The notes under the pieces: model-generated
What the model was told of the DNA's origin: nothing
What the model saw: only the letters and a program-made list of their open reading frames with translations
Databases searched by the model: none
Program-made: the position numbers and the translations under genes
Shown here: piece after piece, positions 4,109 to 56,619 of the stretch
How the letters are laid out: each line of letters begins with the position of its first letter
Numbering within the stretch: the stretch's first letter is position 1
Assembly (NCBI GenBank): GCA_036676495.1
Contig: JAKFCT010000045.1
Coordinates: 18,898-82,897, forward strand
Direction: 5' to 3'
DNA: 64,000 bases
Source: Candidatus Sericytochromatia bacterium
GTDB lineage: Bacteria > Cyanobacteriota > Sericytochromatia > S15B-MN24 > UBA4093

Positions 4109-4113
4109 GGCGC

Positions 4114-8995: not shown

Positions 8996-8998
8996 GAG

Positions 8999-10901: not shown

Positions 10902-10958
10902 GATTCCCCGAGGCAAGGCCTCTGCGCGGGACCTCGCTCCCCGTGGCGAGTTTCGGGG

Positions 10959-27699: not shown

Positions 27700-27707
27700 G
27701 CCTCGCA

Positions 27708-28259
27708 TTATACCGAGTTTTGCTTCCACTCCGGGGCCAGAACGGCCATCTCGAGGAAATCATGGAACCGGCCCGCGAAGAAGCGGTGGTCGCGAAGCCG
27801 TCCCTCGGTCTGGAAGCCGCAGCGCTCGTAGCAGGCGATCGCCCGCGCATTGGTCGCCAAGACCAGCAGCCTCGCCTTGTGGAGGCCGAGATCGTCGAAG
27901 AGGTAGCCGAGCAGCGTCTGGAGAGCGTCCGTTCCGAGGCCGTGGCCCCGGGTTGCGGCATCGCCCAGGTAGAGGCCGACGAGGGTCTGGCGATCGCCCG
28001 CATCGTAGGCGCCGTACCAGATCGTCCCGATCAGGCCCTCCGGGGTCTCGATCCCCAGGGTCTTGCCCTCCTGGGAGGAGGTCTTGTCGAGCTCGGTATC
28101 GAGCCAGGCGTCGAGCTCGTCGCGGCTGCTGACGCGGCGCCGGGAGCCCATCTGGCTCCAGAGCTCGGGATCGTTCCACCAGTCGTGGAGCGCGTCGCTG
28201 TCGTCCCGTTCCAGGGCGCGGAGTCGAATGATCTTTCCTTGAAGCATGGCCGTTCTCAT
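27708..28259 (-). CDS. GNAT acetyltransferase (RimJ/RimL-like)
   Basis: IRLRALE..D, RGHGLGT, N.RAI.CYE.CGF..EG.LR. Confidence 0.88.
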   Translation of the reverse strand: MRTAMLQGKIIRLRALERDDSDALHDWWNDPELWSQMGSRRRVSSRDELDAWLDTELDKTSSQEGKTLGIETPEGLIGTIWYGAYDAGDRQTLVGLYLGDAATRGHGLGTDALQTLLGYLFDDLGLHKARLLVLATNARAIACYERCGFQTEGRLRDHRFFAGRFHDFLEMAVLAPEWKQNSV

Positions 28260-28313
28260 GAGGAAGCCGGGGGAAGGTTTCCCCCGGCTTTGCGATTGGA
28301 TAGAGGTTCGAGA

Positions 28314-28829
28314 TTAGTAGTTCTTGACGCGGAACACGACGATGGCGTTGCCGCCCTTCTTGCCCGTGCCGGCCAAGTCGTACTTCTCGGAGGCGGTGCC
28401 GTCGTTGTCGTAAGTGATCGCGCCGTAGTTGGTCATGTCGGTCGGAACCGCCATGGTACCGGGGGCGATCACTTCGTTGACCTTCTTGGCGAAGTGCGCG
28501 GCGACAAAGGGGATATTGGCAGTCTGCTGCTTGTTCCAGGGAGTGTTGGGGAATGCCGTGAGGTAGTCGCTGGCCGCGCCGATGACCAAGCCCTCGCCGG
28601 CAGCCGCGGCGGTAAGCGAGGCGGGGTAGACGCCTGCGTAGTCAACGGCGTACTGCTCGACAGCCATCTGAATGGTGTGACCGTTCGCCTGAACGCCCGA
28701 GTTCTTGGCCTTGTCCTGGGCGCCCATGAAGTTGGGAACCGCCACCGAAGCCAAGATGCCGATGATGACGACGACTACCAGCAGCTCGATCAGGGTGAAA
28801 CCGCCCTGACCCTTCTTCTTGATTTGCAT
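28314..28829 (-). CDS. type IV pilin / pseudopilin
   Basis: Class III signal KKKGQGG|FTLIELLVVVVIIGILASVAVPNF. Confidence 0.92.
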   Translation of the reverse strand: MQIKKKGQGGFTLIELLVVVVIIGILASVAVPNFMGAQDKAKNSGVQANGHTIQMAVEQYAVDYAGVYPASLTAAAAGEGLVIGAASDYLTAFPNTPWNKQQTANIPFVAAHFAKKVNEVIAPGTMAVPTDMTNYGAITYDNDGTASEKYDLAGTGKKGGNAIVVFRVKNY

Positions 28830-28933
28830 TCCATCCTCCTAAATTGCAGGTGCAAGTTTTGGTCCCGCTTGGGGCTACCTATCTCTTCCCTGGAGGGCTA
28901 GCGTCTAAACGGTCGCCCACCGATATTTCTGCG

Positions 28934-28960: not shown

Positions 28961-29087
28961 CAGCCATGGCGGGGCCTTGTTGGCTAGGATGGCCTAGAAG
29001 TCCGGAGGTTTGGGCGCTTGCGGACCATGGGTATACAAGGCTCACGGGGAAGCATCACCCCGTCCGGCGTGGGCGGAGGGGGCAGGA

Positions 29088-30167
29088 ATGGCCGATATCA
29101 ACATCCGGAACCCTCTGGGTTCCAACGAGATCCGGCCTGGAGGCGGCGCGCCCCAGGCCCCTCGGATCGTGGGCCCGACCGCTCCTTCCATCGAGCAGTC
29201 CGCTTCCCAGCGCCCGCAAGGCCCCAGCTACTTCGGCTACCACAACGACTCCTCCATCGCCGCCCGCTTGGCCCAGCAAGGCGTTCCCCCCAACGCCGTG
29301 AACCTGCGCATCGCCCAGCAGATGCTGCGCTACGGGATTCCCCTGGGCGGAGACGCCCTCGCCCAGCTGCGTCACCTCTGGCAGACGATGGGCGCCACCT
29401 CGCTGGTGGACCTGGAGGCCCTCATGGCGCTTTTCGCTTCGGGACACCCCGCCAGCGCCGAGAACATGTCCGCCATGACGCAACTGCTCTCGGGCGGCCC
29501 CATGAGCCACCTCTTCGCCCGGCTCACCATGATGATGCGCAACCACGGTCAGCTTCCGCAGGCCGCCGAGCTTCAAAACCTCATGACCCAGTTCTGGAAG
29601 CTGGGCAACGGTCCCGATAAACTGGGTGGCGAGCTGGCCCAGTTTGAGCAAATCTTCGCTCGAATGGGTAAATTGGCTTCAGGCGACCTTTCGAGGCTTC
29701 CTCCGGACGTCGCCCAGGGCATGAACCAAATCAAGGACTTCATCGCAGCCCAGCAGCTTCTGCTAAAACAGCCCCAGAACACCGTTTACGTGCCTTTCTT
29801 TCAGTGGCGAGATCAGCAGCCGATGCCCGGTGAGCTGCTCGTCCAGGCGGATCAGGATCCGGCCGCGCAGGCGGCCGGTTACGCGCAGGTGGCGCTGGCG
29901 GTGGACACCCGCAATCTCGGGCGGATGCACCTCGACTTCACGGTCATCCGGGGACATCTGAGCGTGCGGCTGGACGTTCCCGATGCCGGCGTCAAGCAGC
30001 TCTTGGAGCGGGGCCTCGCGGACCTGCGTCACAAGCTGGTGGCTCGGACGCCTTACCAGGTGGCCACCATCCTCTGCAACGAGGTGGGGCAGGCCAAGGC
30101 GGTGAGCGTGCTCTTGCCCAAGCGTCGGGATTTGAGGAAGCTCAGTCGGGCGATCGGAGTGCTGTAG
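29088..30167 (+). CDS. FliK-like hook-length control / substrate-switch protein
   Basis: Pro-rich N-terminus; C-terminal VALAVDTRNLGRMHLDFTV..GHLSVRL pattern of FliK_C; precedes a FlhB-like gene. Confidence 0.6.
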   Translation: MADINIRNPLGSNEIRPGGGAPQAPRIVGPTAPSIEQSASQRPQGPSYFGYHNDSSIAARLAQQGVPPNAVNLRIAQQMLRYGIPLGGDALAQLRHLWQTMGATSLVDLEALMALFASGHPASAENMSAMTQLLSGGPMSHLFARLTMMMRNHGQLPQAAELQNLMTQFWKLGNGPDKLGGELAQFEQIFARMGKLASGDLSRLPPDVAQGMNQIKDFIAAQQLLLKQPQNTVYVPFFQWRDQQPMPGELLVQADQDPAAQAAGYAQVALAVDTRNLGRMHLDFTVIRGHLSVRLDVPDAGVKQLLERGLADLRHKLVARTPYQVATILCNEVGQAKAVSVLLPKRRDLRKLSRAIGVL

Positions 30168-30374
30168 ATGAGCGAGAATCAACCCATTCGCTTGCCAGCC
30201 AGACGCCAATCCCAGGCGCTCACGCCCGCTGCAGCCCAGGCGGTGGCGGAAGTGATGAAGGGGCTGACGGTTCAGGCGGCCATCCCGAGGGAGATGCTGC
30301 CGGCGATCGAGGAGATGCTCGGTTACATCTACGCGATGGATGAGCGGGCCCAGAACGGAAGAGGGAGGAGGTAG
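30168..30374 (+). CDS. minimal FlhB C-terminal-like protein (FlhX/YlqH-like, degenerate)
   Basis: IPREMLPAIEEMLGYIYAMDE resembles FlhB-CC IP.ELY.AVAEVLAYVY; typical position after fliK. Confidence 0.55.
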   Translation: MSENQPIRLPARRQSQALTPAAAQAVAEVMKGLTVQAAIPREMLPAIEEMLGYIYAMDERAQNGRGRR

Positions 30375-30375
30375 G

Positions 30376-31122
30376 ATGCTTCGGGGAATCTACACCGCGG
30401 CCACCGGGATGATGTACCAGCTGGACGCGGTCAACACCATCTCCCATAACCTCGCCAACGTCGAGACCAACGGCTACAAGCGCAAAGAATTGCTTGGCGC
30501 CAGCTTCGGCGACGTGCTGATCGAGATGACCGGTCAGGCGCCCGGCATGCAAGGACTCGTCGGCCAGGGCATCCGCTCGGAGGGCGCGTTCCGCTACGAC
30601 ACGCCGGGCAACCTGGTTGCCACCGGCAGCCCCTTGACCTTCGCGCTGGCCAACCCCGGTTACTTCGTGGTCCAGCGCCAGGATGGCACCCAGCTCATGA
30701 CCCGTGACGGCGACTTCTCGATCGACGAGCAGCGCCGGCTGGTCACCAAGAGCGGAGAGCTGGTGCTTTCCGTTCGCCCGCCCGGAAACCAGCTCGCTCC
30801 CGTCGTGCTCCCCGGAGATCTCGCGGCTTTCAAGGTCTCGCCCGAGGGCAACCTCACGCAGGGCGAGGACTTCCTGGGCAGGCTCGTGGTGGTGAACCCG
30901 CCCGAGGCCCAGATGGCCACCTTCCCGGTCGCCCCCGCCCAGCTCCAGCTGGTGGATGGCGGGGTCAAGCAGGGATTCCTCGAGCACTCCAACGTCAACG
31001 TCGTCACGGAAATGGTCTCGCTCCTGCATGCGAACCGGTCGTTCGGCTTCTCGCAGAAGGTCATCATGGCGCATGACCAGATGCTTCAGAAGGCCGCCAA
31101 CGACCTTGGCCGCATCCAGTAG
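30376..31122 (+). CDS. flgF: flagellar basal-body rod protein FlgF
   Basis: MLRGIYTAATGM, SHNLANVETNGYK, TRDGDF, QGFLEHSNVNVVTEMV. Confidence 0.85.
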   Translation: MLRGIYTAATGMMYQLDAVNTISHNLANVETNGYKRKELLGASFGDVLIEMTGQAPGMQGLVGQGIRSEGAFRYDTPGNLVATGSPLTFALANPGYFVVQRQDGTQLMTRDGDFSIDEQRRLVTKSGELVLSVRPPGNQLAPVVLPGDLAAFKVSPEGNLTQGEDFLGRLVVVNPPEAQMATFPVAPAQLQLVDGGVKQGFLEHSNVNVVTEMVSLLHANRSFGFSQKVIMAHDQMLQKAANDLGRIQ

Positions 31123-31146
31123 GCCCTTCAGAGGAGGTTACGCCGA

Positions 31147-31914
31147 ATGATTCACGCGATTTGGACCGCCGCTACGGGCATGCAGGCCCAGCAGATGCGC
31201 ATCGACACCATCGCCAACAACTTGTCGAACGTCAACACGACCGCCTACAAGCGCTCGAACGTCGACTTCCAGGATCTCCTGTACCAGACCATCAACCAGC
31301 CCGGCGCGGACACGGCCGGCGTTCAGGTCGGCTTGGGCGTGCGCCCGGTGGCCATCACCAAGCTCTACGAGCAGGGTAACCTCCAGATCACCGAGAACGC
31401 GCTGGATCTGGCCATCGACGGCGAGGGCTTCTTCCAGGTGCGGCGCGCCGACGGCACGGTGGCCTACACCCGGGACGGCTCGTTCAAGCTGGACGCCGAG
31501 GGCAACCTGATCACCTCCACCGGTCTCCAGCTGGAGCCTCAGATCCAGTTCCCGGCCGGTACCACCAACATCTACATCGCCAACAACGGTCAGGTGGCCG
31601 CACAGCTGCCGGGCCAGCCGGAGCAGGCCCCCATCGGTCAGATCAACCTGGCGCGCTTCGCCAACCCGGCGGGTCTCCAGGCGATGGGCAACAACCTCTT
31701 GCTCCAGACGGCCGCTTCCGGCGAGCCCATCATCGGGCCGGCGGATATCGAGGGCATGGGACGGATCCGGCAGGGAGCGCTGGAAACCTCGAACGTGGAG
31801 CTGGTGCGCGAGATGGTCATGATGATCGCCACCCAGAAGGCCTACGACACCTCGTCCAAGGCCATCAACGTGTCGGACAAGATGATGGAGACCGCGAACA
31901 ATCTCCAACGGTAA
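31147..31914 (+). CDS. flgG: flagellar distal rod protein FlgG
   Basis: ANNLSNVNTTAYK, FQDLLYQ, DLAIDGEGFFQV, YTRDGSF, LETSNV. Confidence 0.95.
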   Translation: MIHAIWTAATGMQAQQMRIDTIANNLSNVNTTAYKRSNVDFQDLLYQTINQPGADTAGVQVGLGVRPVAITKLYEQGNLQITENALDLAIDGEGFFQVRRADGTVAYTRDGSFKLDAEGNLITSTGLQLEPQIQFPAGTTNIYIANNGQVAAQLPGQPEQAPIGQINLARFANPAGLQAMGNNLLLQTAASGEPIIGPADIEGMGRIRQGALETSNVELVREMVMMIATQKAYDTSSKAINVSDKMMETANNLQR

Positions 31915-31930
31915 GGAAAGCTAGGAGGCC

Positions 31931-32659
31931 ATGCACAAGGCGGCAACGCTCGGATTGTTTCTCGTGGCTTGGGCGATCGCGCTCATGCCGGCCCATGCCG
32001 CTCCCTTGCGGGAGCGCGACGTGGTCGAGTTCGTCGCCGAGCAGGCCGCCTTGCGCTATCAGGCCAAGCGATCGGATATCAAGGTCACCTGGGAGGGGAC
32101 GCGTCTCGCGTCCCTGGCCGGAGGAGGTCTGGACGGCTCGCAGGTCACCTTGCACCTCGATCCGGATACGCGGCTCGGGGGGAAATCCGCCATTCCCCTG
32201 CAGCTTTTCAAGGACGGGAAGCGCTTCAAGACCATCTTTCCCCGCCTGGAGATCCTGGTCCTGAGGGAGGTCATGGTGGCGGTGAACGGGGTGGCGCGAG
32301 GTGACGCGATCGCCGAGGGCGACGTGCAGCTCGTGAAGCGGGCCTTGCATACCATCCCCGGAACGCCCATCCTGGGAGGGCCCGAGGTCCTGAAGGGGGC
32401 CGTCGCCAAGCGGTACGTGGCGAAGGGGACGGTTCTGGTGGAGGGGGCCTTCGACTTGCCGCCCTTGGTCCGGAGCGGTAGCATGGTGGCCGTGAAGGTC
32501 GTCAGCGGAGCGCTCACGATCATCGCCAGTGGCCAGGCCGTTTCGGATGGGGCCATGGGGCAGCTGATCCGGGTCGTGAACCTGGACACGCGCAAGGACT
32601 TCGTGGCGCGGGTGGTCGGTGAGAATCGGGTCGAGATCCACCTGGAGGAGGAACGATGA
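31931..32659 (+). CDS. flgA: P-ring chaperone FlgA
   Basis: Signal peptide, SAF-like region, PPLVRSG, G.A.SDG..GQLIRVVNL; position between flgG and flgH. Confidence 0.9.
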   Translation: MHKAATLGLFLVAWAIALMPAHAAPLRERDVVEFVAEQAALRYQAKRSDIKVTWEGTRLASLAGGGLDGSQVTLHLDPDTRLGGKSAIPLQLFKDGKRFKTIFPRLEILVLREVMVAVNGVARGDAIAEGDVQLVKRALHTIPGTPILGGPEVLKGAVAKRYVAKGTVLVEGAFDLPPLVRSGSMVAVKVVSGALTIIASGQAVSDGAMGQLIRVVNLDTRKDFVARVVGENRVEIHLEEER

Positions 32660-33339
32660 GGAGGTTGGTCATGGGGAAGTGGGCGATGGCAGGCTTGCTC
32701 GCCACCATGATGACGGGCGCGCCGCTGCTGGGGACCGCACCGTTTCAGGGGATCGCTCCGTTTCTAGGGGTAGCCCCGTTTCTTGGGATAGCTCCGGCGT
32801 CGGCGGATTCGCTTTACCGGGCGGATGATCCCGGTCTCTTGAGCGATCGCCTGGGCGATCGCCGCTCGCAGTTCGGACCGGGCGCGTTGGTCACCGTGAT
32901 CGTCACCGAGAACATGCAGGCCTCGACGACGGCGACCACGCGGGCTCAGAAGGAGTCCAAGAACGGGGCCAACTGGAACTTGGGCTCGATCATCCCTCAG
33001 GGAGCCGCGGGCGAGGTGAGCGTCGGAGGCAAGACCGAGTTCGCCGGCGACGGCCTGACCCGCCGGGGAGGGGTCATCACCCTGGAGATCGCCGCCGTGA
33101 TCCAGGAGGTCCTGGCCGATGGATCCTTGCGGATCGAGGGTAAGAAGGATCTGAGGGTGAACGACGAGGTCAGCACCGTCACGATCGCGGGCGTCATCCG
33201 TCCCTTCGACATCGATCCGGGAAACCGCGTGGCCTCCACCCGGATCGCCGACCTCAAGCTCGACTACAAGGGCGCCGGCCCGGTCCACGCCAAGACCTCG
33301 CCTGGCTTGTTGTCCCGCCTCTTCAACTGGCTTTTCTAG
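32656..33339 (+). CDS. flgH: flagellar L-ring protein FlgH
   Basis: G.LVTVIVTE, VL.DGSLRIEGKK...VN.E, G.IRP.DI..N.V.STRIAD, GLLSRLFNWLF; no lipobox Cys. Confidence 0.9.
   Translation: MRRLVMGKWAMAGLLATMMTGAPLLGTAPFQGIAPFLGVAPFLGIAPASADSLYRADDPGLLSDRLGDRRSQFGPGALVTVIVTENMQASTTATTRAQKESKNGANWNLGSIIPQGAAGEVSVGGKTEFAGDGLTRRGGVITLEIAAVIQEVLADGSLRIEGKKDLRVNDEVSTVTIAGVIRPFDIDPGNRVASTRIADLKLDYKGAGPVHAKTSPGLLSRLFNWLF
32731..32796 (+). repeat. 18-bp in-frame tandem repeat in the flgH signal region
   Basis: GGGACCGCACCGTTTCAG / GGGATCGCTCCGTTTCTA / GGGGTAGCCCCGTTTCTT / GGGATAGCTCCG. Confidence 0.85.
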
Positions 33340-33348
33340 GAGTCTGAG

Positions 33349-34473
33349 ATGCGCCGCTGGCTGACCCTATTCCTGGCCCTCCTGATGCCGCTGGCTCTCA
33401 TGAGCCCGGCCTCGGCCGAGGTCTTCAAATCCGATCAGCCCGTGCGGCTCAAGGACATCGCCTTCGTCCAGGGAGCCGTCGACAACCAGTTGACCGGCCT
33501 GGGCCTGGTGGTGGGTCTCAACGGGACGGGCGACACGCAGCAGACTGGCTTCACCGAGCGGGTGCTTCGCAACCTTGTCATCAACACGGGCGTTTACGTG
33601 GCCCAGGAGCGGATCCGGGCGAAGAACGTGGCGGTCGTGACCGTGACGGCCAAGCTTCCCCCCTTCCTCAAGCCCGGCCAGAAGATCGACGTGACCGTGG
33701 CCTCCATCGGGGACGCCAAGAGCCTCAACAACGGCGTGCTGGTCCAGACCCCCCTGATGGGTCCCGACGGCAAGACCTACGCGGTGGCCGAGGGCTCGCT
33801 CTCCACGGGAGGCTTCGAGGTCTCCGCCAACGGCAGCTCGGTCAGCAAGAACCAGTCCCTGGTCGCCCGCATCCCCAACGGGGGAATCGTCCAGCGCGAC
33901 GTGCCCGTGACGATGATCGACGCCAACGGCTTCCTGCACCTCAACCTCAACGAGCCCGACTTCGTGACGGCCTCGCGGGTGGCCGCCGCCATCCAGAAGA
34001 GCTACCTGGGCACGGCGCAGGCCATCGACGCCGCGACCATCCGGGTCTACGTCACCAGCCAGTACCGGGACAACCTCGTGAACCTGGTCGCACGCCTGGA
34101 GCAGATCAGCGTGCTCCCCGATCTGGTCGCCAAGGTTGTGATCGAGGAGCGAACGGGTACAGTAATCTTGGGGTCGAACGTCCGGATCGGTCCGGTCGCG
34201 ATCACCCACGGCGGGTTGTTGCTCAAGGTGGACACCCAGACGACCGTTTCGCAGCCCAACGCCCTCTCTGCGGGCGCGACGACGGTCGTGACCAACTCGT
34301 CGGTTTCTGCCGAGGAGCAGAAGGCCAAGAGCGTGGTGCTCGACGCCGGGACCACCCTGGGGCAGCTGGTGAGGGCGCTGAACGCGCTGGGCACCACGCC
34401 GCGGGAGCTGATCTCGATCGTGCAGAACATCAAGGCGGCCGGGGCGTTGAACGCCCAGCTGGAAATCATCTAG
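33349..34473 (+). CDS. flgI: flagellar P-ring protein FlgI
   Basis: RLKDIA, NQLTGLGLVVGLNGTGD, KNVAVV.VTA.LPPF, IGDAKSL, ERTGTV, AGALNAQLEII. Confidence 0.97.
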   Translation: MRRWLTLFLALLMPLALMSPASAEVFKSDQPVRLKDIAFVQGAVDNQLTGLGLVVGLNGTGDTQQTGFTERVLRNLVINTGVYVAQERIRAKNVAVVTVTAKLPPFLKPGQKIDVTVASIGDAKSLNNGVLVQTPLMGPDGKTYAVAEGSLSTGGFEVSANGSSVSKNQSLVARIPNGGIVQRDVPVTMIDANGFLHLNLNEPDFVTASRVAAAIQKSYLGTAQAIDAATIRVYVTSQYRDNLVNLVARLEQISVLPDLVAKVVIEERTGTVILGSNVRIGPVAITHGGLLLKVDTQTTVSQPNALSAGATTVVTNSSVSAEEQKAKSVVLDAGTTLGQLVRALNALGTTPRELISIVQNIKAAGALNAQLEII

Positions 34474-34496
34474 CCGCTGTCGGCAAGGAGTGAGCC

Positions 34497-34832
34497 GTGG
34501 ACCGTATCAACCCTTATATGAGCGGGTTTCCGCTGAGTCCACTCTCGGCCGCTCCCATGCCCGTCGCTCCGAAGCAGGGGCTCGGCCTGGAGGAGACCCG
34601 CCAGGCGGCCGAGGAGTTCGCCGGTTATCTTTTTGCCCAGGTCTTCAGCCAGATGCGGCCGGAGTCCAATGAGGAGGGGGGATTGTTCTCGGGAGAGAAC
34701 GCCGAAATGTTCATGAGCTTCTTTGATCAGGCTGTTGGCAAGAGCTTCGCAAACTCGGGCTCTGGCAACCAACTGGTGGACCAGTTGGTGCAGCAGCTCG
34801 TTCAAGCTCAGTCGAAAGCCCAGCAGGAGTAG
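34497..34832 (+). CDS. flgJ: FlgJ-like rod-binding protein (no muramidase domain)
   Basis: QAAEEF...F..V..QMR, GGLFSGE..EMF...FDQ, L.DQLVQQL; follows flgI. Confidence 0.8.
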   Translation: MDRINPYMSGFPLSPLSAAPMPVAPKQGLGLEETRQAAEEFAGYLFAQVFSQMRPESNEEGGLFSGENAEMFMSFFDQAVGKSFANSGSGNQLVDQLVQQLVQAQSKAQQE

Positions 34833-34841
34833 GAGCGCACG

Positions 34842-35513
34842 GTGAAGAAGCCTGTCACGTCAGCGAAACGGATGGATGATGCCGCCATCAAGCAATACTT
34901 GCCGATGGTTCGGGCGATCGCCCGTCGCCTCTCCACCAAGCTGCCGCGTCACTACGATGTCGAGGACTTGGTCTCCGACGGCATCATGGGCCTGATGGCC
35001 GCGGCCGATCGCTTCGATCCCGAGCGCGGCGTCAAGTTCGAGACCTTCGCCACCTACTACATCAAGGGGGCCATCCTCGACAACCTGCCCAAGCTGCCCA
35101 CCATCCCCAAGAACCAGCGCCAGCAGGTCGAGGACGAGAACTCCGAAGAGGCGATGCAGAGCTCCCTGACCCAGCTCGCCTACTCGTACATCCTCAGCCT
35201 GGACGCCCCGTCCGGCTCGGACGGCGACGAGTCCTTCTCGCTGCTCAACCAGCTGGGCTCCAGTGACACCATCCAGAACGAGATGGAGCTGGAAGATCTT
35301 CAGCAGACCCTGCGCCTCACCATCGAGCAGTTGCCGGTCCAGGAGCGCACCACGCTGCGCTACTACTACTTCCACAACATGTCGTTCAACGAGATCGGCC
35401 AGAAGCTGGGTCTGTCGGAGTCCTGGGTCAGCCGCATCCACCGCAGGGCGCTGGAGCAGCTCAAGCAGAAGCTGGGCAAGAAGAAGAGCATCGACGACTT
35501 TATTAGTTGGTAG
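34842..35513 (+). CDS. fliA: FliA/WhiG-family sigma-28 factor
   Basis: YLPMVRAIARRL, DVEDLVSDG..GL, FDPERGVKFETFA, EIGQKLGLSESWVSRIH; region 3 shortened. Confidence 0.88.
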   Translation: MKKPVTSAKRMDDAAIKQYLPMVRAIARRLSTKLPRHYDVEDLVSDGIMGLMAAADRFDPERGVKFETFATYYIKGAILDNLPKLPTIPKNQRQQVEDENSEEAMQSSLTQLAYSYILSLDAPSGSDGDESFSLLNQLGSSDTIQNEMELEDLQQTLRLTIEQLPVQERTTLRYYYFHNMSFNEIGQKLGLSESWVSRIHRRALEQLKQKLGKKKSIDDFISW

Positions 35514-35546
35514 CTGCAGACGCTAGTTGGTAGGGGTATCCGTTGC

Positions 35547-35601
35547 CGTCATTCCCGCGGAAGCGGGAATCCACTGGACCCCCGCTTTCGCGGGGGTGAC
35601 G
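35547..35601. repeat. REP-like double palindrome
   Basis: CGTCATTCCCGCGGAAGCGGGAATCCACTGGACCCCCGCTTTCGCGGGGGTGACG; sister copy at 21449. Confidence 0.8.
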
Positions 35602-35622
35602 AGAGAGGAAGGGGGTGTCAGC

Positions 35623-36045
35623 ATGTTCGGAATGGAACTCAAAGGTCTCGAGCGCGCTCTGGACGGCCTGAGCACCCGCTTTTCGGCCCAGGCGAACAAC
35701 GTCGCCAACGTCAACACTCCCAACTATCAGCGCCAGGTGGTCAACTTCGAGGACTCCCTCAAGGCCATCCTGGAAACCGCCAAGGCTGAGGGCTCCCAGG
35801 AGCCATTCGAGAATCCGATGCAGGGCTTCTTCGGGCAGTCGTCGACCGATGCCGCCGCCATGCTCGAGATGTGGTCGCCGACCGTGACCACGGTGGAAAA
35901 CAAAGCTTTCCGCCGCGACGGCAACGGCACCTCCATCGAGTCCGAGATGGCGGACGTGGTCAAGACCGTCCAGCGCTTCAACACGGTGACCACCATGTTG
36001 GCCTCCGAGTATCGGACGCTCAAGTTCGTCATCGACGCGAAGTAA
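35623..36045 (+). CDS. flgB: flagellar rod protein FlgB
   Basis: LERALDGL..R, ANNVANVNTPNYQ, RRDGNGTSIESEM; start MFGM after RBS. Confidence 0.92.
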   Translation: MFGMELKGLERALDGLSTRFSAQANNVANVNTPNYQRQVVNFEDSLKAILETAKAEGSQEPFENPMQGFFGQSSTDAAAMLEMWSPTVTTVENKAFRRDGNGTSIESEMADVVKTVQRFNTVTTMLASEYRTLKFVIDAK

Positions 36046-36055
36046 TTTGTCGCTT

Positions 36056-36079
36056 GGCGGGCGCAGAGGCCCGCCCTAC
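36056..36079. repeat. GTAG-type REP element
   Basis: GGCGGGCGCAGAGGCCCGCCCTAC; second copy at 50806-50829. Confidence 0.7.
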
Positions 36080-36248
36080 TGCCCCTACCTTAACCGTGGC
36101 ACGGGCGTCCCTGCCCGCGCATGTCCGCCTGTGCGTTCTTGCAGCGCGTCCTCGCCTGCGATCACGCTCGGCGTGACCGATGCCACGGCTTCCGACTTCA
36201 GCGCTCGGTATTATGTAACGAGCCCCCTTGCCGGTGCCGCTTGTAGGC

Positions 36249-36263
36249 TTAAGCGGGTTTTAA
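36249..36263. promoter_or_regulatory. TTAA-N7-TTAA motif upstream of flgC-fliE-fliF-flhA
   Basis: TTAAGCGGGTTTTAA, 88 nt before the flgC ATG. Confidence 0.6.
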
Positions 36264-36350
36264 ACCCCAAACCGTGCTACCAAGCCCTTTCCCGGGTATA
36301 GGGGGAGTAGTGTGATTAGCCAGACCGGTCCTTCGACCTGAGGGGGAGTC

Positions 36351-36758
36351 ATGAGCATCTACAACGTCTTCGATGTTTCGGCCTCCGCGCTGACCGCCAA
36401 CCGCTTCTGGTTGGAGGCGATTTCGAATAACATGGCGAACTCCGCCGCCACCCGGACGCCGGACGGTGGGCCCTACCAGCGCCAGATGCCGGTCTTCCAG
36501 ACCCTGCTCGACGAGGCGACGGGCCAGCTCAAGGGCGTGCAGGTCGCCGGCACCCACAAGGACCAGACTCCCGGGCCCTTGGTCTACAAGCCCGGCCATC
36601 CCGACGCGGATCCCAACGGCTTCGTGAGGATGCCCAACGTCAACGTCGTGACCGAGATGGTCGACATGATCGCCGTCAGCCGGGCCTACGACTCCAACGT
36701 GACCATCGCCAACGCGGCCAAGAACATGCACCAGAAGTCCCTCGAGATCGGGCGATAG
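36351..36758 (+). CDS. flgC: flagellar rod protein FlgC
   Basis: SASALTANR, SNNMAN, GGPYQR, YKPGHPDA, MPNVNVVTEMVDMI. Confidence 0.96.
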   Translation: MSIYNVFDVSASALTANRFWLEAISNNMANSAATRTPDGGPYQRQMPVFQTLLDEATGQLKGVQVAGTHKDQTPGPLVYKPGHPDADPNGFVRMPNVNVVTEMVDMIAVSRAYDSNVTIANAAKNMHQKSLEIGR

Positions 36759-36767
36759 GAGGCTCTG

Positions 36768-37151
36768 ATGCTCGTCAACTACCACCAGCTCAACGCCCTG
36801 CCGGGCCGCAACGATCCGCTCGCCGCCTTCAACGAGTTCGAGGACAAGTTCGCCCAGTTCGGCCTTCAAAACAACCCGGAGTTCCCCGGGACGCTCGATC
36901 CGTCGGCGAACGTCCTCAATCCCGGCGAGACCCGGGACTTCGGGGACGTGCTCAAGGACGCCATCCAGGGCGTGAGCGACAAGCACCACCATGCGCTGGA
37001 GCTCGGCGTGGACTTCAGCCTGGGTAAGCCCATCGACCCCCACCAGATCATGCTGGCGGTGACCCAGGCCGAGACCCAGGTTCACCTGACCTCGGCCGTC
37101 ACGACGCGCGTCGCCCAGGGCTATCAGACCCTGATGAACATGCAAATCTAG
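36768..37151 (+). CDS. fliE: hook-basal body protein FliE
   Basis: FGDVLKDAI..V, D.HQIMLA..QAE, YQTLMNMQI C-terminus. Confidence 0.92.
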   Translation: MLVNYHQLNALPGRNDPLAAFNEFEDKFAQFGLQNNPEFPGTLDPSANVLNPGETRDFGDVLKDAIQGVSDKHHHALELGVDFSLGKPIDPHQIMLAVTQAETQVHLTSAVTTRVAQGYQTLMNMQI

Positions 37152-37152
37152 T

Positions 37153-39036
37153 ATGGGAGCGCTTCAGAATCTCCTTCAAAACAAGAAACTGCTGGCCATC
37201 GTCGGGGGAGGCGTTGGCCTCCTCGTCGTGATCATCATCGTCGTGATGATGGCGATGGGCGGCGGCAAGAACAAGGAGAAAGAAGCGGAATCCTGGACCG
37301 TGCTCTTCCGCAAGATGGATGGAGTCTCGGCGGGCGAGGCTGCGGGCAAGCTGCAAGAAGCCAAGATCGAGAGCAAGCTGCTCGAGGACGGGACGGCGAT
37401 CGCCGTCAAGAAGGAGAACGCCGACAAGGCGCGCATCGCGCTCTCCTTGGCCGGCCTGCCCAAGAACGCCGAGCCCGGCTTTGAGATCTTCAACAAGAAG
37501 GACTTCATCTCCACCGACTTCGACAAGAAGATCGCCTTCCTCCGGGCCCTGCGCGGAGAGCTGAAGCGCCTCGTCAAGCAGATCGACGGCGTCGAGGACG
37601 CCGGCGTCATCGTCAACCTTCCCGAGGACACCCTCTTCCAGACCGAGCGCAAGCCCACCACCGCCGCCGTCATGGTCGTCATGCAGCGCGGGCGCTCCCT
37701 CAATCCCATGCAGGTGGAAGGCATCCAGCACCTCGTCGCCTCCTCGGTTCCCGGCCTCTTGACCGACAACGTCACCGTCACGGACAAGGACGGCCACCTC
37801 CTGTCCAGCGGCATGGAAGCCAACGCCGGCAACAAGGACGAGCGCAGCCTGATGCGCGCCCTCAACGAGCAGATGAAGGTCACCCGCCAGATGGAGGCCG
37901 ACCTCGAGAACCGTCTCACCTCGCTGCTGGACAAGCTGGTGGGCTCGGGCAAATCGGTCGTGCGCGTCAAGCTCGAACTGGACTTCAACAAGCGCCAGGT
38001 CATGAACCAGTTGCTGGCCCCCGTGCTCAACAACGGCGAGCCCGTGGCCGTCAACCGCACCCTCGTCGAGGAGCGCAACGGCACCGCCACCAACGGCGGC
38101 GTGCCCGGCGTGGCCTCGAACGTGCCTTCTTACCCGGCCCTGCCGAGCGAGATGGGCGGCGACAAGGAGTCCTACCGCAAGAACCTTCGCGAGCAGCAGG
38201 CCCTCAGCATGGAGCGCCAGCTCGTGAACACGGCCTCCGGCAACATCAAGCGCATGTCCATCGCCGTGCTGCTTCCCGAATCGGTGAAGCCCGACGGAGT
38301 GGAGCGCCTGCGCATGGTCATCGCGACCGCCGCCGGCGCCGACCAGGCCCGCCGCGACCAGGTGACCGTCGAGCGCGTGAAGTTCGACACCTCCCTCGAA
38401 GACGCCCTGAAAAAGGAGCTCGAGGACAAGGACGCCGCCTCCAAGAAGCCCAAGGGCAAGTCGGTCTCATGGGGCCTGGTCTGGGCCGCGGGCGGAGGAC
38501 TCTTGCTGCTCTTCCTGCTCATCGCCTTCATCCGCCGGGCAACCCGCAAGCAAGAGGACCCCTTGGCCGCGCTCACCGCGCTCAGCGGCGACGGCGATTC
38601 GCTGCCGTCGTTCGATCAGTCGGCTTTGGCCGGTATCCCGCCGGGCTTCGGCCAGATGGGCTTCGATCAGGACGCCCTCTCGGGTCAGATGGGTTACGAC
38701 CAGGGACTGCCCGGAGGCGATCCGTACGCCAACATGCAGTACGAGGAGCCTGCCATGATGGCGCCTCAGGCCCAGGCCATGGGCGGTGCGTTCGACTTCC
38801 TCTATGAGGTCGCCCCCGAGCAAGTCTCCGAACTCCTGGGCATGGAGAAGCCCCAGAGCGTCGCCGGCGTGCTGGCGCAGCTCGACCCGGGCTACGCCGA
38901 GCAGGTGCTCAACTACCTCTCGCCGGACATCCAGCAAGAGGTCTTCAACCGCTTGAACTCGGGCGCCTCCTTGCCCGCCATGACCCAGAAGATGCTGAGC
39001 CAGTCCCTGCGGCGGAAGCTCGGCGTCCCGGTCTAG
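37153..39036 (+). CDS. fliF: MS-ring protein FliF fused to a FliG middle-domain-like C-terminus
   Basis: FliF motifs GFEIF, RALRGEL, VNLPE.TLF, LVASSVPGL...NVTVTD..G, two TMs; tail FDFL...PEQV..LL..EKPQSVA.VLA.L resembles FliG_M (EHPQ motif). Confidence 0.9.
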   Translation: MGALQNLLQNKKLLAIVGGGVGLLVVIIIVVMMAMGGGKNKEKEAESWTVLFRKMDGVSAGEAAGKLQEAKIESKLLEDGTAIAVKKENADKARIALSLAGLPKNAEPGFEIFNKKDFISTDFDKKIAFLRALRGELKRLVKQIDGVEDAGVIVNLPEDTLFQTERKPTTAAVMVVMQRGRSLNPMQVEGIQHLVASSVPGLLTDNVTVTDKDGHLLSSGMEANAGNKDERSLMRALNEQMKVTRQMEADLENRLTSLLDKLVGSGKSVVRVKLELDFNKRQVMNQLLAPVLNNGEPVAVNRTLVEERNGTATNGGVPGVASNVPSYPALPSEMGGDKESYRKNLREQQALSMERQLVNTASGNIKRMSIAVLLPESVKPDGVERLRMVIATAAGADQARRDQVTVERVKFDTSLEDALKKELEDKDAASKKPKGKSVSWGLVWAAGGGLLLLFLLIAFIRRATRKQEDPLAALTALSGDGDSLPSFDQSALAGIPPGFGQMGFDQDALSGQMGYDQGLPGGDPYANMQYEEPAMMAPQAQAMGGAFDFLYEVAPEQVSELLGMEKPQSVAGVLAQLDPGYAEQVLNYLSPDIQQEVFNRLNSGASLPAMTQKMLSQSLRRKLGVPV

Positions 39037-39047
39037 GGCGCGGCTAG

Positions 39048-41162
39048 ATGATCGCCCTTCCGGGAGGAAAACAAGGCGGCCTCTTGGGCGACCTCGCCCT
39101 CGCCGCCATTGTCGTCATCATCCTGGGCATCCTCTTGCTGCCCCTGCCGACGATCATCCTGGACTTCCTGATCGTCTGCAACATCGTCATCTCGCTGATC
39201 ATCCTCTTCGTCGCCCTTTACCTGATCAAGCCGCTCGAGTTCGCGAGCTTCCCGTCGATGCTGCTGATCACGGCCTTGTACCGCATCAGCTTGTCGGTGG
39301 CCACCACCCGCTCGATTCTCCTCAACGGCGAGGCGGGACATATCATCGACTCGATGGCGAACATCGTCATGGGCGGCAACTTCCTGGTCGGCATCATCAT
39401 CTTCCTGATCCTGATCCTCGTGAACATGATCGTCATCACCGAGGGCGCCAAGCGCGTCGCCGAGGTGGCGGCGCGCTTCACCCTGGACGCCATGCCCGGT
39501 AAGCAGATGTCCATCGACGCGGACCTGGCCTCGGGCCTGATCGACGGCAACGAGGCCAAGGCCCGCCGCGAGAACCTCGTCCGCGAGTCGAGCTTCTTCG
39601 GCGCCATGGACGGCGCCAACAAGTTCGTGAAGGGCGACGTCATCATGGGCATCGTGCTGATCGTCGTCAACATCATCGGCGGCATCCTGATGGGCATCAT
39701 CTTCAAGCAGATGGACGTCATGCAGGCCATGCAGAAGTACACGCTGCTGACCGTCGGTGACGGCCTGGTGGGCTTGATTCCCTCGATCCTGATCTCGATG
39801 GCCGCCGGTTTCGTCACCACGCGCGCGGCCTCGGAGAACAACCTCTCCATCGACCTCAAGAACCAGGTCTTCGGCTCCCCCAAGACCATGGCCGTCGCGG
39901 CGGTGGTCGTCACCCTGATGGGCTTCATCCCCGGCTTCCCCGCCTACTTCTTCATCCCGCTGGGTCTGGTGCTCGGAGCGGTCGCCTTCATGAGCTTCCG
40001 CAAGTCGATGGCGCCTCCGCCCACCGACGACTACATGATGCCCGGCGACGACATGATGGACGACTACGCCCCCGAGGCCGACGAGGATCTCAAGAACCCC
40101 GAGAACGTCATGAAGATGCTCGGCGTGCCTCCGCTCACCCTGGAGCTGGGGCTCGACCTCGTGCCCCTGGTCGACCCGGGCCTGGGCGGCGAACTCATGG
40201 ATCGGGTGGTCCCCATGCGCGTGAACATCGCCCTCGACATGGGCTTCGTCATGCCGGGCATCCAGTTCAAGGACAACCTCAACCTCCGGCCCAACGCCTA
40301 CCAGATCCTGGTGAAGGGCAACGTGGTGGCCGGGGGCGAACTTCTGGTCGGCTACATGCTGGCGATTCAGCAAGCCATGACCGATACCAGCCAGGAGCTG
40401 GTGGGCTTCCCCACCACCGACCCCGCCTTCGGCAAGCCCGCGGTCTGGGTGGCCGGCGCCGAGGCCCAGCGGGCCGCTCAGCTCGGCTATCTGATCCAGG
40501 ACCCGACCAACGTGCTCACCGCGCACCTCGAAGAGGTGGTGCGGTCGTTCGCCCATGAGATCCTGAGCCGCGAGGAGGTCCAGATGATGCTGAACCGCCT
40601 CAAGGAGAAGGCTCCGGTCACGGTCAAGGATCTGGTGCCCGAGATCCTCTCGCTCTCGGAGGTCCAGCGCGTCCTGCAGGCCCTCATCCGCGAGCGCGTC
40701 AGCATCCGGGACCTCGCTACCATCCTCGAGAAACTGGCCGATTACGGCAAGATGACCAAGGACGTCTTCGTGCTCACCGAGCTGGTCCGCCAGTCGCTGG
40801 GCCGCCAGATCTGCGCGGGCCTGGCCGACGAGGAGGGCCAGATCACGGTCATCACCCTGGATGCCGGGGTCGAGAATACCGTTCAGCAATCGATTCAGCA
40901 GGGCCCCACCGGCCCCAGCCTGGCCATCAACCCGCAGATTGCTCAGCTCGTCTTGGCAAGGCTCGCCTCGGTACATCAGGAAGCCATCTCCAAGGGCTAC
41001 AATCCCTGCCTGATCACCAGCCCCGTCACCCGCCCGCACATCAAGGGCCTCATCGACCGCAACTTCCCGCAGATGGCGGTCATCTCCTTCGCCGAGATCT
41101 CGAGCAAGTACAAGGTCCAGTCGGTCGGCTCGGTTTCGATCGCCGTGGGGGCCGTGTCTTAG
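39048..41162 (+). CDS. flhA: flagellar export gate protein FlhA
   Basis: SFPSMLL, RVAEVAARFTLDAMPGKQMSIDADL, FFGAMDGANKFVKGD, DPAFG.PA.W, ERVSIRDL. Confidence 0.97.
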   Translation: MIALPGGKQGGLLGDLALAAIVVIILGILLLPLPTIILDFLIVCNIVISLIILFVALYLIKPLEFASFPSMLLITALYRISLSVATTRSILLNGEAGHIIDSMANIVMGGNFLVGIIIFLILILVNMIVITEGAKRVAEVAARFTLDAMPGKQMSIDADLASGLIDGNEAKARRENLVRESSFFGAMDGANKFVKGDVIMGIVLIVVNIIGGILMGIIFKQMDVMQAMQKYTLLTVGDGLVGLIPSILISMAAGFVTTRAASENNLSIDLKNQVFGSPKTMAVAAVVVTLMGFIPGFPAYFFIPLGLVLGAVAFMSFRKSMAPPPTDDYMMPGDDMMDDYAPEADEDLKNPENVMKMLGVPPLTLELGLDLVPLVDPGLGGELMDRVVPMRVNIALDMGFVMPGIQFKDNLNLRPNAYQILVKGNVVAGGELLVGYMLAIQQAMTDTSQELVGFPTTDPAFGKPAVWVAGAEAQRAAQLGYLIQDPTNVLTAHLEEVVRSFAHEILSREEVQMMLNRLKEKAPVTVKDLVPEILSLSEVQRVLQALIRERVSIRDLATILEKLADYGKMTKDVFVLTELVRQSLGRQICAGLADEEGQITVITLDAGVENTVQQSIQQGPTGPSLAINPQIAQLVLARLASVHQEAISKGYNPCLITSPVTRPHIKGLIDRNFPQMAVISFAEISSKYKVQSVGSVSIAVGAVS

Positions 41163-41289
41163 GCCTGGCGGTCCCCGCCGCCGCGCCGGCACTCCTGCTC
41201 GCGGAGCGATGAGACTTGCTGAGGGTCGAGCATTGTGGGAACATGGCAGGACCTGTCGCCCTGTTCGAACCACGAAGCGAGATTCATCG

Positions 41290-42600
41290 ATGAAGCCTCT
41301 CACCAAGCTCATGCCCCTGGCGGTTTCCGCCCTCGTTCTTGCGGGTTGTACGCCCCCCTGCATCCATAACAGCTCTAACGGCATGCCCACCCTGACGTCG
41401 CTGGGCATTCAAGACGCCCGCTCGCTTTTCATCGCGGGTCAGACCTCGGGCCAGTACCGGATTGCCAGCGGCCCCACCCAGCAGGCGCTCTACAAGGTGG
41501 ATGCCTCGGGAGCCGTCTCGGCCGTCGAGGCCAAGTTCGGCAGCGGCTCGGGTTACATGATGCTCTCGCTGAATCCCCAGTACGTGACCCAGATCTCCGA
41601 GAACTTCATCGTTCTCGGGACCAGCTGGGGCACCTTCCTCGTCCGTCGCACGGACGGCAAATCGGCGCGGCTCGATTCGACGCCCACGTACGTCATGAGC
41701 GACGGCATGCAGGCCCCCGTCCAGGCGGACAAGATCGGGAACATCTACCTGAACTCCCACCAGGAGGGCCTCTACAAGGTCGCCTTGCCAACCGAGCTGA
41801 CCTCTGACGACCTGACGAAGACCTCGATGATCAAGGGCGAACTGGAGCTGGTCCAGCAGTTTGCCGTGAATCACGCCGGCTACCTCGTCGCCACGGTCTC
41901 CCCCAAGTCCAACGGTCCCATGAATCCCAAGACGCGCCTTTACAAGCCGAGCGGAAGCGTCCAGAACCTTTCGACGAGTGGGCAATTCGGCGGCGGGTCC
42001 ATGTGGGTCGCCAAGGACGGTACGCTTTACATGCATGCCTACGGCTCCTCGGGCCCGGCTCTCCACATGCTCTCGGTGGATGCCAGCGGGAACGGGACGT
42101 TGGTGCCCGTCGAGGGATGGACGGAACCCAGCTACATGTCGATGCCCTACAACATGCCGGCGCTGCTTCCGGACCAGACGGTTCTCTCGGGCAACGAGTA
42201 TAGCCGGGAGACGAACGAGCAGCATCCCAACGGGATCGACCTCTACAAGCCCTATCTCTTCTTCGTGAAGGGAGCCAAGGCGACCAAGGAATACCTGACA
42301 AAGGTCGTCAAGGTCTCGGCGATCGCGGCATCCGCCACGACGGTCGTCATCCTGGGCACGGATCAGGCCGAGAACACCATGGTGAGCTCGTTCGACCCCG
42401 TGACGAAGGAGGAGAAGGTCCTCTTCAGCGATGCGAACTACCAGATCCTGAAGATGACGGTGGCCGCCAACGGGACGGTCACCCTCAACGCCCTGCGTCT
42501 GGCCGACAACACCTATGTCGTGGCGGACATCAAGGACGGAGCCCTCGCCGTCGCGAACTCGGAGTTGCCGCCCGTCAAGCAGTTCCTGACGCTGCAGTAG
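41290..42600 (+). CDS. lipoprotein with probable beta-propeller
   Basis: MKPL..LVLAGC lipobox; beta-rich repeats (DKIGNIY, KDGTLY). Confidence 0.75.
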   Translation: MKPLTKLMPLAVSALVLAGCTPPCIHNSSNGMPTLTSLGIQDARSLFIAGQTSGQYRIASGPTQQALYKVDASGAVSAVEAKFGSGSGYMMLSLNPQYVTQISENFIVLGTSWGTFLVRRTDGKSARLDSTPTYVMSDGMQAPVQADKIGNIYLNSHQEGLYKVALPTELTSDDLTKTSMIKGELELVQQFAVNHAGYLVATVSPKSNGPMNPKTRLYKPSGSVQNLSTSGQFGGGSMWVAKDGTLYMHAYGSSGPALHMLSVDASGNGTLVPVEGWTEPSYMSMPYNMPALLPDQTVLSGNEYSRETNEQHPNGIDLYKPYLFFVKGAKATKEYLTKVVKVSAIAASATTVVILGTDQAENTMVSSFDPVTKEEKVLFSDANYQILKMTVAANGTVTLNALRLADNTYVVADIKDGALAVANSELPPVKQFLTLQ

Positions 42601-55388: not shown

Positions 55389-55400
55389 CTTCCCTTCCTT

Positions 55401-56609: not shown

Positions 56610-56619
56610 CGTTCGGTAC

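Follow-up and report, generated by a model that had tools for sequence, protein, structure and literature searches.

The subject of this work is a cluster of flagellar genes in a 64,000-nucleotide stretch of DNA, hereafter the window, that comprises positions 18898 to 82897 of contig C45 in a metagenome-assembled genome (MAG) of Candidatus Sericytochromatia (genome label G000; 4.14 Mb in 106 contigs, 91.9% complete, 6.7% contamination). An earlier reading of the bare sequence, here called the original prediction, had taken this cluster for a stripped-down flagellar basal body and a candidate non-motile secretion system. Our analysis of the genome and its relatives instead identifies it as holding the core genes of a second flagellar system ("system 2"), which is strongly derived and conserved across the class and which in this genome stands beside a canonical one ("system 1"). 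The class survey covers 47 genomes in seven families (f1-f7), among which related genomes are not independent of each other. A literature search on the flagellar genes of Sericytochromatia found nothing, with supplements, which might list such genes, lying outside the search, and database records label the proteins described below simply as FliF or FliN.

Fifteen intact and co-directional open reading frames (ORFs) on the + strand fill positions 29010 to 41162 of the window. Annotated with Pfam and NCBIfam profiles, they agree with the original prediction in the genes named, in their place and orientation, and in the gap of 11 nt that separates fliF from flhA (39037-39047). The cluster starts with the gene of a FliK-like hook-length ruler of system 2 (29088..30167; Pfam Flg_hook, 35.2 bits, E 1.1e-8), whose ORF opens with a TTG at 29010, the first internal ATG being that at 29088, and which is syntenic in six loci of relatives (L024, L028-L032). 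The next ORF, of 68 aa (30168..30374), scores 19 bits with the NCBIfam model flhB_rel (E 0.0012, far under the cut-off) and has no BLASTP match to the FlhB of system 2 (FlhB2). Because it retains the motif of the final helix in the C-terminal domain of FlhB, and because ORFs of 90-100 aa at the same position in f6 and f7 relatives match FlhB2 residues 269-364 (E 6e-9 to 1e-13), it appears to be fairly described as an FlhB-C-terminal-like remnant. It is followed by genes for a FlgF-like rod protein (30340..31122, with the true start probably near 30376; Flg_bb_rod, LlgE_F_G_D1 and Flg_bbr_C domains; flgF model 122 bits, under cut-off) and for the distal rod protein FlgG (31147..31914; flgG_G_neg, 335.8 bits, cut-off 252.75).

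The middle of the cluster encodes the P-ring assembly chaperone FlgA (31931..32659; ChapFlgA, 83.2 bits), the L-ring protein FlgH (32656..33339; 129.1 bits) and the P-ring protein FlgI (33349..34473; 402.7 bits). Behind them lie a short FlgJ of 111 aa (34497..34832; Rod-binding, 31.5 bits), which consists of the N-terminal FlgJ region without the muramidase domain, and a FliA/WhiG-like sigma factor of system 2 (34842..35513; Sigma70_r2 and r4; FliA_WhiG 159.4 bits, under the cut-off of 189.6) that is 33% identical to the FliA of system 1. Proximal rod protein FlgB (35527..36045; TIGR01396, 71.5 bits, cut-off 59.05) is followed by an 84-aa ORF without a Pfam or NCBIfam match (36047..36301), which is conserved in close relatives only, with partial tblastn matches in L024 and L034 and nowhere else. 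The cluster ends with proximal rod protein FlgC (36351..36758; Flg_bbr_C, 51.2 bits; 45% identical to system-1 FlgC), FliE (36768..37151; 62.2 bits), the MS-ring protein FliF (37153..39036) and the export gate protein FlhA (FlhA2; 39048..41162; FHIPEP, 788.6 bits; 42% identical to system-1 FlhA). This gene order from fliK to flhA, full-length FliF included, is identical in six of 11 related loci (L024, L028-L032); the remaining five are shorter or rearranged pieces that cover the cluster in part. Elsewhere on C45, genome-wide family searches gave no match for FliG_C, FlhB, FliP, flagellin, FlgD, FlgK, FliL, MotA_N or MotB_plug.

The most distinctive feature of the cluster, which the gene list of the original prediction did not spell out, is the C-terminus of FliF. 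The protein (FliF2) has 627 aa, with two transmembrane segments, a full periplasmic region and a low-complexity linker that leads into an ARM-type domain of about 80 residues. Besides YscJ_FliF (177.6 bits) and YscJ_FliF_C (83.9 bits), it matches FliG_M (42.4 bits) at residues 555-623, where the usual FliG-binding tail would stand, and the same C-terminal stretch aligns to residues 109-186, the middle domain, of the genome's own FliG (BLASTP E 1e-6). This fused domain is conserved in 18/18 aligned orthologues. Among 80 FliF homologues from the databases, 46 combine YscJ_FliF, YscJ_FliF_C and FliG_M at no less than 37% identity, two are partial sequences without FliG_M, and the other 32 (at most 37% identity) are ordinary FliF proteins of 500-580 aa. 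The homologues of fused architecture that carry an organism name are mostly from Sericytochromatia, with a few labelled as cyanobacteria or simply as "bacterium". Within the class, the fusion adjoins flhA2 in 44 of the 47 genomes, 43 times in an open frame of 603-669 aa and once in a gene cut by a contig end. Relatives of FlhA likewise sit on contigs titled Candidatus Sericytochromatia or Tanganyikabacteria; the orthologues of FlhA2 all fall into one 50% cluster, the next representatives are at most 44% identical, and with a Desulfovibrionaceae MAG and a Nitrospinota MAG as the organism-named ones among these no donor can be named.

The original prediction had flagged that the missing genes could lie elsewhere in the genome, and this is where most of them were found, on contigs C34, C42, C27/C48 and C57. 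A series of genes on one strand of C34 encodes a 106-aa ORF, FlgD (50.1 bits), a FlgE-like protein of 358 aa (weak on Pfam; FlgEFG_subfam 92.7 bits, cut-off 70.25), two proteins of 299 aa and 463 aa with FliN-type C-termini, a clear FliN (81.6 bits), FliO and FliP joined in one ORF of 428 aa (L014, 8732-10018, - strand; FliO at residues 99-155, FliP at 231-422), FliQ and FliR. An ORF of similar length to this FliO-FliP (405-413 aa) is present in f6. A lone flhB (414 aa), with an intact NPTH site at residue 268, stands beside the ATP synthase operon on C42. The N-terminal half of a further FliI is found at the start of C27, with a 468-aa FliH encoded ahead of it, and the C-terminal half at the start of C48, the gene being split over both contigs because an assembly break cuts it. 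C57 and C27 each carry a motAB pair outside system 1. The system-2 paralogues are 25-50% identical to their system-1 counterparts and are scattered over at least five loci, and another genome of this genus (L046) has the same loci in the same order, its proteins being 67-97% identical. G+C content is 0.656-0.668 on the seven contigs measured (C45, C38, C42, C34, C29, C23 and C47, with C27, C48 and C57 outside the measurement). Because of the paralogues on C34, C42, C27 and C48, their recurrence in the related genome and the uniform G+C content, we regard system 2 as a dispersed second system and not as a self-contained minimal conduit.

These loci change the picture drawn from the window. Parts of switch-like, hook, export-gate and ATPase type had been thought absent or truncated, yet flgD, flgE, a FliM-like gene, fliN, fliO-P, fliQ and fliR are present on C34, flhB on C42 and fliH/fliI on C27/C48; with these parts and two motAB pairs outside system 1, the idea of a stripped-down conduit is no longer tenable. 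A search of the genome and its relatives that recovered fliPQR, flhB and fliI without motAB, fliC or a full fliG had been proposed as support for it, and in this genome the search did recover fliPQR, flhB and fliI and no FliG_C or fliC for system 2, but it also recovered motAB pairs outside system 1. The export gate is of flagellar type, since FlhA, FlhB, FliP and FliR each score above the matching injectisome (Sct) model (FlhA 761.7 versus SctV 620, FlhB 357.8 versus SctU 303.8, FliP 241.9 versus SctR 183), with FliQ assigned by Pfam. FlhB and FliP exceed their flagellar cut-offs (349.25 and 217.45), FlhA stays just below its own (772.1) and FliR falls short (130.5 against 168.6). System 2 thus comprises a flagellar-type gate, MS ring, rod, P/L rings, hook, hook cap and ruler, has no gate proteins of SctV/U/R type, and is, in this genome, without a FliG with torque domain, FlgK, FlgL, flagellin or FliD of its own.

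Two proteins encoded on C34 are candidates for a switch-like structure. The 299-aa protein, here called FliM-like, combines its FliN-type C-terminus with a weak likeness to the FliM middle domain in the PDB (E about 0.003). A complex model of its residues 1-205 with FliF residues 540-627 scored 0.61, compared with 0.01 for the best of three controls, with at least 97% contact agreement between runs and a partner pLDDT (predicted local distance difference test) of at least 83; that mark was reached by 58/80 solved complexes and 2/110 mismatched pairs, counts that are rough since our own alignments were used. Because FliG-FliM complexes have already been solved, this pass is to be taken as a predicted likeness to them and not as binding. 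The 463-aa protein (L014 on C34, 10372-11763, - strand) has about seven hydrophobic helices at its N-terminus, a linker and a C-terminal FliN (SpoA) domain. Its helix bundle is confidently modelled (pLDDT 80-95 over residues 10-280), and its homologues are only 27 proteins, all with the FliN domain and 26 of them of about 460 aa; in f6, the membrane-anchored protein is 674-693 aa long. With Foldseek, the C-terminal FliN domain alone was matched and the membrane part had no likeness in the PDB, the listed rows for seven-helix receptors (probability 0.1-0.4) not being meaningful, and an Atlas feature search gave no usable match for the membrane domain either.

A hidden FliG_C was sought in the 468-aa FliH, in the 463-aa protein and in the six-frame translation of the genome and was found in none of them. 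A second FliG was also considered, given that FliG-like proteins of 613-758 aa occur together with motAB in f1 and f4, and was dismissed for this genome, where the 8-kb island that carries them is absent between C30:70666 and 70757. The island (5083-13041 of L040, G017:C24; also L041, G014:C25, and L043, G021:C4) encodes MotB, MotA, a 384-aa ORF, a TPR protein and the 613-758-aa protein, which has FliG_N, FliG_M and FliG_C in its C-terminal 300 aa; it looks like a separate module of MotAB plus a FliG-like protein.

System 1 of the same genome is marked by a second FlhA (926.6 bits) on C38, which lies inside a long canonical flagellar cluster on one strand (about 19.8-52.1 kb; loci among L016, L017, L019 and L020). 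Its rotor and export genes encode FliG with N, M and C domains, FliH, FliI, a FliM recognised by Pfam and a FliY-type protein (CheC plus FliN), and the rest of the set comprises FlgE with D2 domain, FliK, MotA/MotB, FliL, FliPQR, FlhB, FlhA, a PilZ/YcgR-like protein and FliA. Further parts are flgF, flgG, flgK and a flgL-like gene on C23 (27.7-33.7 kb) and a fliC-fliD-fliS operon on C29 (13.8-17.4 kb). Neither tblastn nor the FlgI model detected a system-1 flgA, flgH or flgI anywhere in the genome; tblastn found no second flgA or flgH, and the FlgI model has a single match, so that the copies in the window cluster are the only ones found. Both FlgG proteins pass the Gram-negative FlgG model (360.5 bits for system 1 and 335.8 bits for system 2). 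The complete flagellum of a presumed diderm, that of system 1, may thus depend on ring genes of the other system, and two FlgG proteins of Gram-negative type would fit P/L rings that are shared between both.

Some loose flagellar pieces stand apart from both systems. A 184-aa flagellin-like ORF with N- and C-terminal helical segments only (G000:C29:36649-37203, - strand; Flagellin_N 42.4 bits, model positions 16-63) is unlinked to other flagellar genes. Stand-alone paralogues of the FlhA cytoplasmic domain lie at G000:C38:14644-15507 and G000:C47:3179-3904 (both - strand); such frames span about 330-650 aa, share 30-59% identity with FlhA2 residues 340-700 and occur several per genome across the class (G002-G046). 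A crude genome-wide scan for sigma-28-type promoters by regular expression gave 78 matches, of which 13 are upstream of genes, two before late genes of system 1 on C23 and none at system-2 loci, a result too coarse to build on. The two motifs on C23 (TAAA/TCAA, 15-16 nt, CCGATA; G000:C23:28566-28591 and 30245-30270) precede flgG and a 101-aa ORF, both of system 1.

The absence of torque and filament parts claimed by the original prediction is borne out for most of them. In this genome, the only FliG_C match and the only FliL both fall within system 1; one FlgK exceeds the cut-off and one FlgL-like protein was found, both encoded beside flgF/G of system 1. Flagellin and cap genes are limited to the fliC-fliD-fliS operon, which belongs to the system-1 set, and the 184-aa ORF, with no copies for system 2. 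All nine Flg_bbr_C proteins are accounted for, five by system 1 and four by system 2. FliG N and C domains, FliL, FlgK/L, FliD and flagellin are thus missing from system 2 here as stated, but the two extra motAB pairs do not conform to the claim.

Across the class, by our reading of the match list, FlhA2-type rows (57-97% identity) are present in 44/47 genomes and system-1-type FlhA rows (39-45%) in 39 of the 41 genomes outside f6 and in 0/6 of f6. FlgI is encoded by one gene per genome in 44/47, inside the system-2 cluster wherever its position was compared with that of flhA2, and most genomes with two systems have two FlgD matches. Family f6 consists of six low-G+C genomes, one of which (G033) is 5.1 Mb in 3 contigs, and has system 2 only. 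These genomes hold FlhA2, FliF2 with the fused domain, rod, FlgAHI and the sigma factor, along with one FlgD each (6/6), one FliP in 3/5, one ATPase of type III secretion system kind in 5/5 and the triple of FliN-domain genes in 4/5; FliG_C, flagellin, FliL and FlgK over cut-off were each found in 0/6, and no FliG_M was seen outside FliF2. This content supports the core intuition of the original prediction. The f6 genomes carry 8-11 Flg_bbr_C ORFs, compared with the nine in this genome, and G033 has six extra rod/hook-like paralogues (242-532 aa, L086-L091) that are scattered and have rod/hook N- and C-terminal motifs. Family f2 has one or two true flagellins (Flagellin_N plus Flagellin_C, 323-435 aa) directly downstream of flhA2 in 6/6 loci (L059, L061-L065), a gene that is lacking after flhA2 in the f1, f6 and f7 loci examined. 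One f2 locus (L060; G008:C54, 92-8975) has the cluster from flgD2 to fliR2 directly downstream of a system-1-type flhA on the same strand.

Counts of MotB_plug track the number of flagellar systems, with one in 6/6 genomes of f6, two in 8/8 of f2, mostly two in f7 and three to six in f1. In G033, motA (363 aa, extended at its C-terminus) and motB stand directly behind a 1707-aa ORF whose C-terminus is FliK-like (L056 on contig C1 of G033, 3784-11106). A MotA tree of 27 rows, with a midpoint root that serves for drawing only, groups the sole MotAs of f6 with the second MotAs that f7, a sister family, and f5 have outside system 1 (support 99/100) and the MotA on C57 of this genome with the second MotAs of f1-f4 (100/99). 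The suggestion of the original prediction that the apparatus is non-motile therefore fares unevenly: f6 is without flagellin, FlgK, FliG_C and FliL, but it has kept MotAB, f2 has flagellins after flhA2, and the core scores as flagellar and not as an injectisome.

Comparison to described systems helps to delimit what is unusual here. With the canonical flagellum, that of Salmonella and E. coli as well as of system 1, system 2 shares FlhA, FlhB with NPTH, FliO/P/Q/R, FliH/FliI, FliF, FliE, FlgB/C/F/G, FlgA/H/I, FlgD, a FlgE-like protein, FliK, FliN and a FliA-like sigma factor. It differs in having no separate FliG, only the FliG_M-like domain on FliF, in the absence of its own FliG_C, FliL, FlgK/L, FliD and flagellin in this genome, in a FliM-like protein that Pfam FliM does not recognise, in the extra membrane-anchored FliN-domain protein, in a FlgJ without muramidase domain and in the scatter of its genes, which occupy at least five loci. 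In the dual systems known so far, both machines come with complete sets of parts, FliG, FlgK/L and flagellin included, whereas the genome described here has one set of FliG, FlgK/L and flagellin and its only P/L-ring genes belong to the derived system. As such, the presence of two flagellar gene sets is a likeness to polar and lateral systems like those of Shewanella piezotolerans WP3, where an L-ring gene complements across both systems (PMC5178100).

The nearest described feature to the FliF fusion is FliF of the Chlamydiaceae, whose cytoplasmic C-terminus is homologous to the FliG M domain in the absence of a separate FliG (Bergeron 2016, PeerJ, PMC4768692). In system-2 FliF, too, the cytoplasmic end carries a FliG M-like domain. 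The chlamydial fusion has about 330 aa with a shortened periplasmic region and comes from hosts with few flagellar genes plus an injectisome; by comparison of descriptions only, system-2 FliF differs in its 627 aa, its full YscJ_FliF and YscJ_FliF_C and its full basal-body set. Flagellar export machines without filament are described for the basal bodies of Buchnera aphidicola (PMC8109811) and an FT3SS-like system of the non-flagellated Lysobacter enzymogenes (PMC7688988). They resemble f6, with its system 2 and lack of flagellin, in that basal-body and export genes are kept in organisms not expected to swim by flagellin filaments, but these are what gene loss left of a single ancestral flagellum, whereas system 2 is a second, class-wide set beside a complete flagellum, has a fused rotor protein to itself and probably a dedicated stator too. 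The likeness to injectisomes (Abby and Rocha 2012, PMC3459982) lies in the lack of a FliG torque ring, a cytoplasmic FliM/FliN-like (SctQ-like) platform and a possible export-only use. Against the secretin, needle and translocon of an injectisome, for which no search was made here, system 2 has rod, P/L rings, hook cap, hook and FliK, and its gate proteins score better as flagellar.

At a probability of roughly 50%, we read system 2 as a working, stator-coupled organelle that is driven by a second MotAB, has an unconventional rotor interface and varies in its distal parts between lineages; at the same about even odds, we prefer this to a purely static pore for secretion. Its own export apparatus of flagellar type would build a structure of rod, P/L rings and hook, and the fused FliG_M-like domain may dock the platform of FliM-like protein and FliN directly on the MS ring. 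FlgA, FlgH and FlgI would probably serve system 1 as well. The distal parts would be shared with system 1 in this genome, consist of dedicated flagellins in f2 and be made of hook-like paralogues in f6. A more specific form of this reading, which we consider conceivable yet doubtful, is a FliG-less machine with dedicated MotAB whose rotor would be composed of FliF-FliG_M, a ring of FliM-like protein and FliN, and the membrane FliN protein, which would amount to a new interface between rotor and stator, and which in f6 would have a long hook-like polymer with the 1707-aa ruler and six extra axial paralogues instead of a flagellin filament.

Several points weigh against a stator-coupled organelle. 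The only FliG_C is part of system 1, with none available to system 2, and to our knowledge every studied flagellar motor needs FliG_C for torque. In this genome, the position after flhA2 that holds flagellins in f2 is taken by a lipoprotein-like ORF and not by a flagellin, and FliG_C, flagellin, FliL and FlgK over cut-off are absent from all six f6 genomes, where no canonical system is present. The FliM-like protein has no Pfam FliM match and reaches 29.5 bits with the fliM model, whose cut-off is 219.6. What ties the second MotAB to system 2 is co-distribution, a single tree and, in one genome, adjacency, with no system-2 gene beside the second motAB in the other 5.5-kb loci; the tree leaves two "second stator" clades unjoined and places the C27 MotA on a very long branch, and extra stators can also serve a single flagellum. 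Completeness and contamination of the MAG make absences in this genome alone soft. The main caveats are the quality of the MAG, a FliM assignment that is weak and a stator link that is indirect.

The main rival explanation, to which we give limited and tentative credence, sees in system 2 a non-rotating, flagellum-derived export or surface apparatus with a gate, a rod, P/L rings as the passage through the outer membrane and a short hook as a needle-like tip, in which the FliM-like protein and FliN would form a sorting platform and the extra MotAB would belong to system 1 or to some other process. In its favour are the lack of FliG N and C domains for system 2, the direct fusion of FliF to a FliG_M-like domain as in the non-flagellated Chlamydiaceae (PMC4768692), the membrane anchor of the FliN-domain protein, the lack of a match to the CheY-binding FliM model and the f6 genomes, which hold system 2 alone with their zero counts of FliG_C, flagellin, FliL and FlgK; Buchnera (PMC8109811) and Lysobacter (PMC7688988) supply filament-less precedents. 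However, the one and only MotAB of f6 falls in the tree with the second stator of f7 and in G033 adjoins a FliK-like gene, and f2 has its flagellins directly after flhA2. Retention of the ruler, the NPTH switch of FlhB and the FliA-like sigma factor, all of which serve ordered distal assembly, and conservation of the P/L-ring bushing and its chaperone in 44/47 genomes also count against this rival, and no candidate effector was identified.

It is unlikely, in our judgment, that system 2 is not independent at all and that the cluster mainly supplies FlgA/H/I, and perhaps rod parts, to system 1, with both sets building one flagellum. In favour of this are the single copies of flgA/H/I in the window cluster only, the Gram-negative type of system-1 FlgG, the f2 locus where a system-2 hook/gate cluster directly follows a system-1-type flhA on one contig (L060), and the cross-system function of an L-ring gene in Shewanella (PMC5178100). 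For a mere donor of parts, however, a complete second set of MS ring, export gate, ATPase, rod, hook cap, hook and ruler would be redundant, and f6 has system 2 with FlgHI and without system 1.

A decaying, non-functional relic of a duplicated or transferred cluster seems very improbable. The reduction of the FlhB-C-like ORF to 68 aa, the short FlgJ and the scores of sigma factor, FlgF, FliR and FlhA under curated cut-offs could be taken as decay, but none of the 15 ORFs is disrupted, the seven families share gene order and content, FlhA identity is 57-97% in 44/47 genomes, and the fused FliF domain is conserved in 18/18 orthologues. A weak hint in the same direction comes from an RNA run with a small share of words (0.06), in which 35 contigs match the cluster (four at 99% or more, 11 at 95-99% and 20 at 90-95% identity; depth in 17 of 30 bins) and so cover parts of it at 90-99% identity; these are contigs of relatives and possibly derived from DNA in the library, and transcription is not demonstrated by them. 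That the cluster or the scattered loci were binned from another organism, as 6.7% estimated contamination and 106 contigs might allow, is scarcely credible in view of the even G+C content on all seven contigs measured, the same loci in the same-genus genome (L046) at 67-97% protein identity and the presence of the same system in the 3-contig genome G033.

Upstream and divergent from the cluster, on the - strand of the window, lie genes of a HemN-like radical SAM protein, a GNAT acetyltransferase and a pilin-like protein, the last a 171-aa protein with a prepilin-type N-terminal methylation motif (28314-28829, - strand). The + strand ORF at 27582-28901, whose 439-aa translation is rich in Arg, Gly and Ala, is an artefact of the wrong frame and no part of system 2, since the real genes are those on the - strand. 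The lipoprotein-like ORF behind flhA (41209-42600, 463 aa) was considered as a member of system 2 and rejected, as it has no Pfam match and no counterpart in loci that extend past flhA. Farther downstream, a stretch of lower G+C content (0.57-0.59; 54189-56666 and 56620-58233, - strand) encodes a neighbouring pair of NHL-repeat beta-propeller paralogues (399 and 421 aa) together with a protein that carries a C92 permuted papain-like amidase domain.

A class-wide system without the FliG torque domain would test the assumption that FliG_C is indispensable for rotation. If system 2 rotates, its stator-rotor interface would be unlike that of every studied motor; if it does not, it would be a free-living, envelope-spanning flagellar derivative that retains rod, P/L rings and hook, and would bear on the origin of export-only type III systems. 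The canonical flagellum of a diderm, that of system 1, may draw on P/L-ring genes that belong to another system. The Sericytochromatia, an uncultured and non-photosynthetic sister group of the oxygenic cyanobacteria, thereby gain a distinctive trait of the cell envelope.

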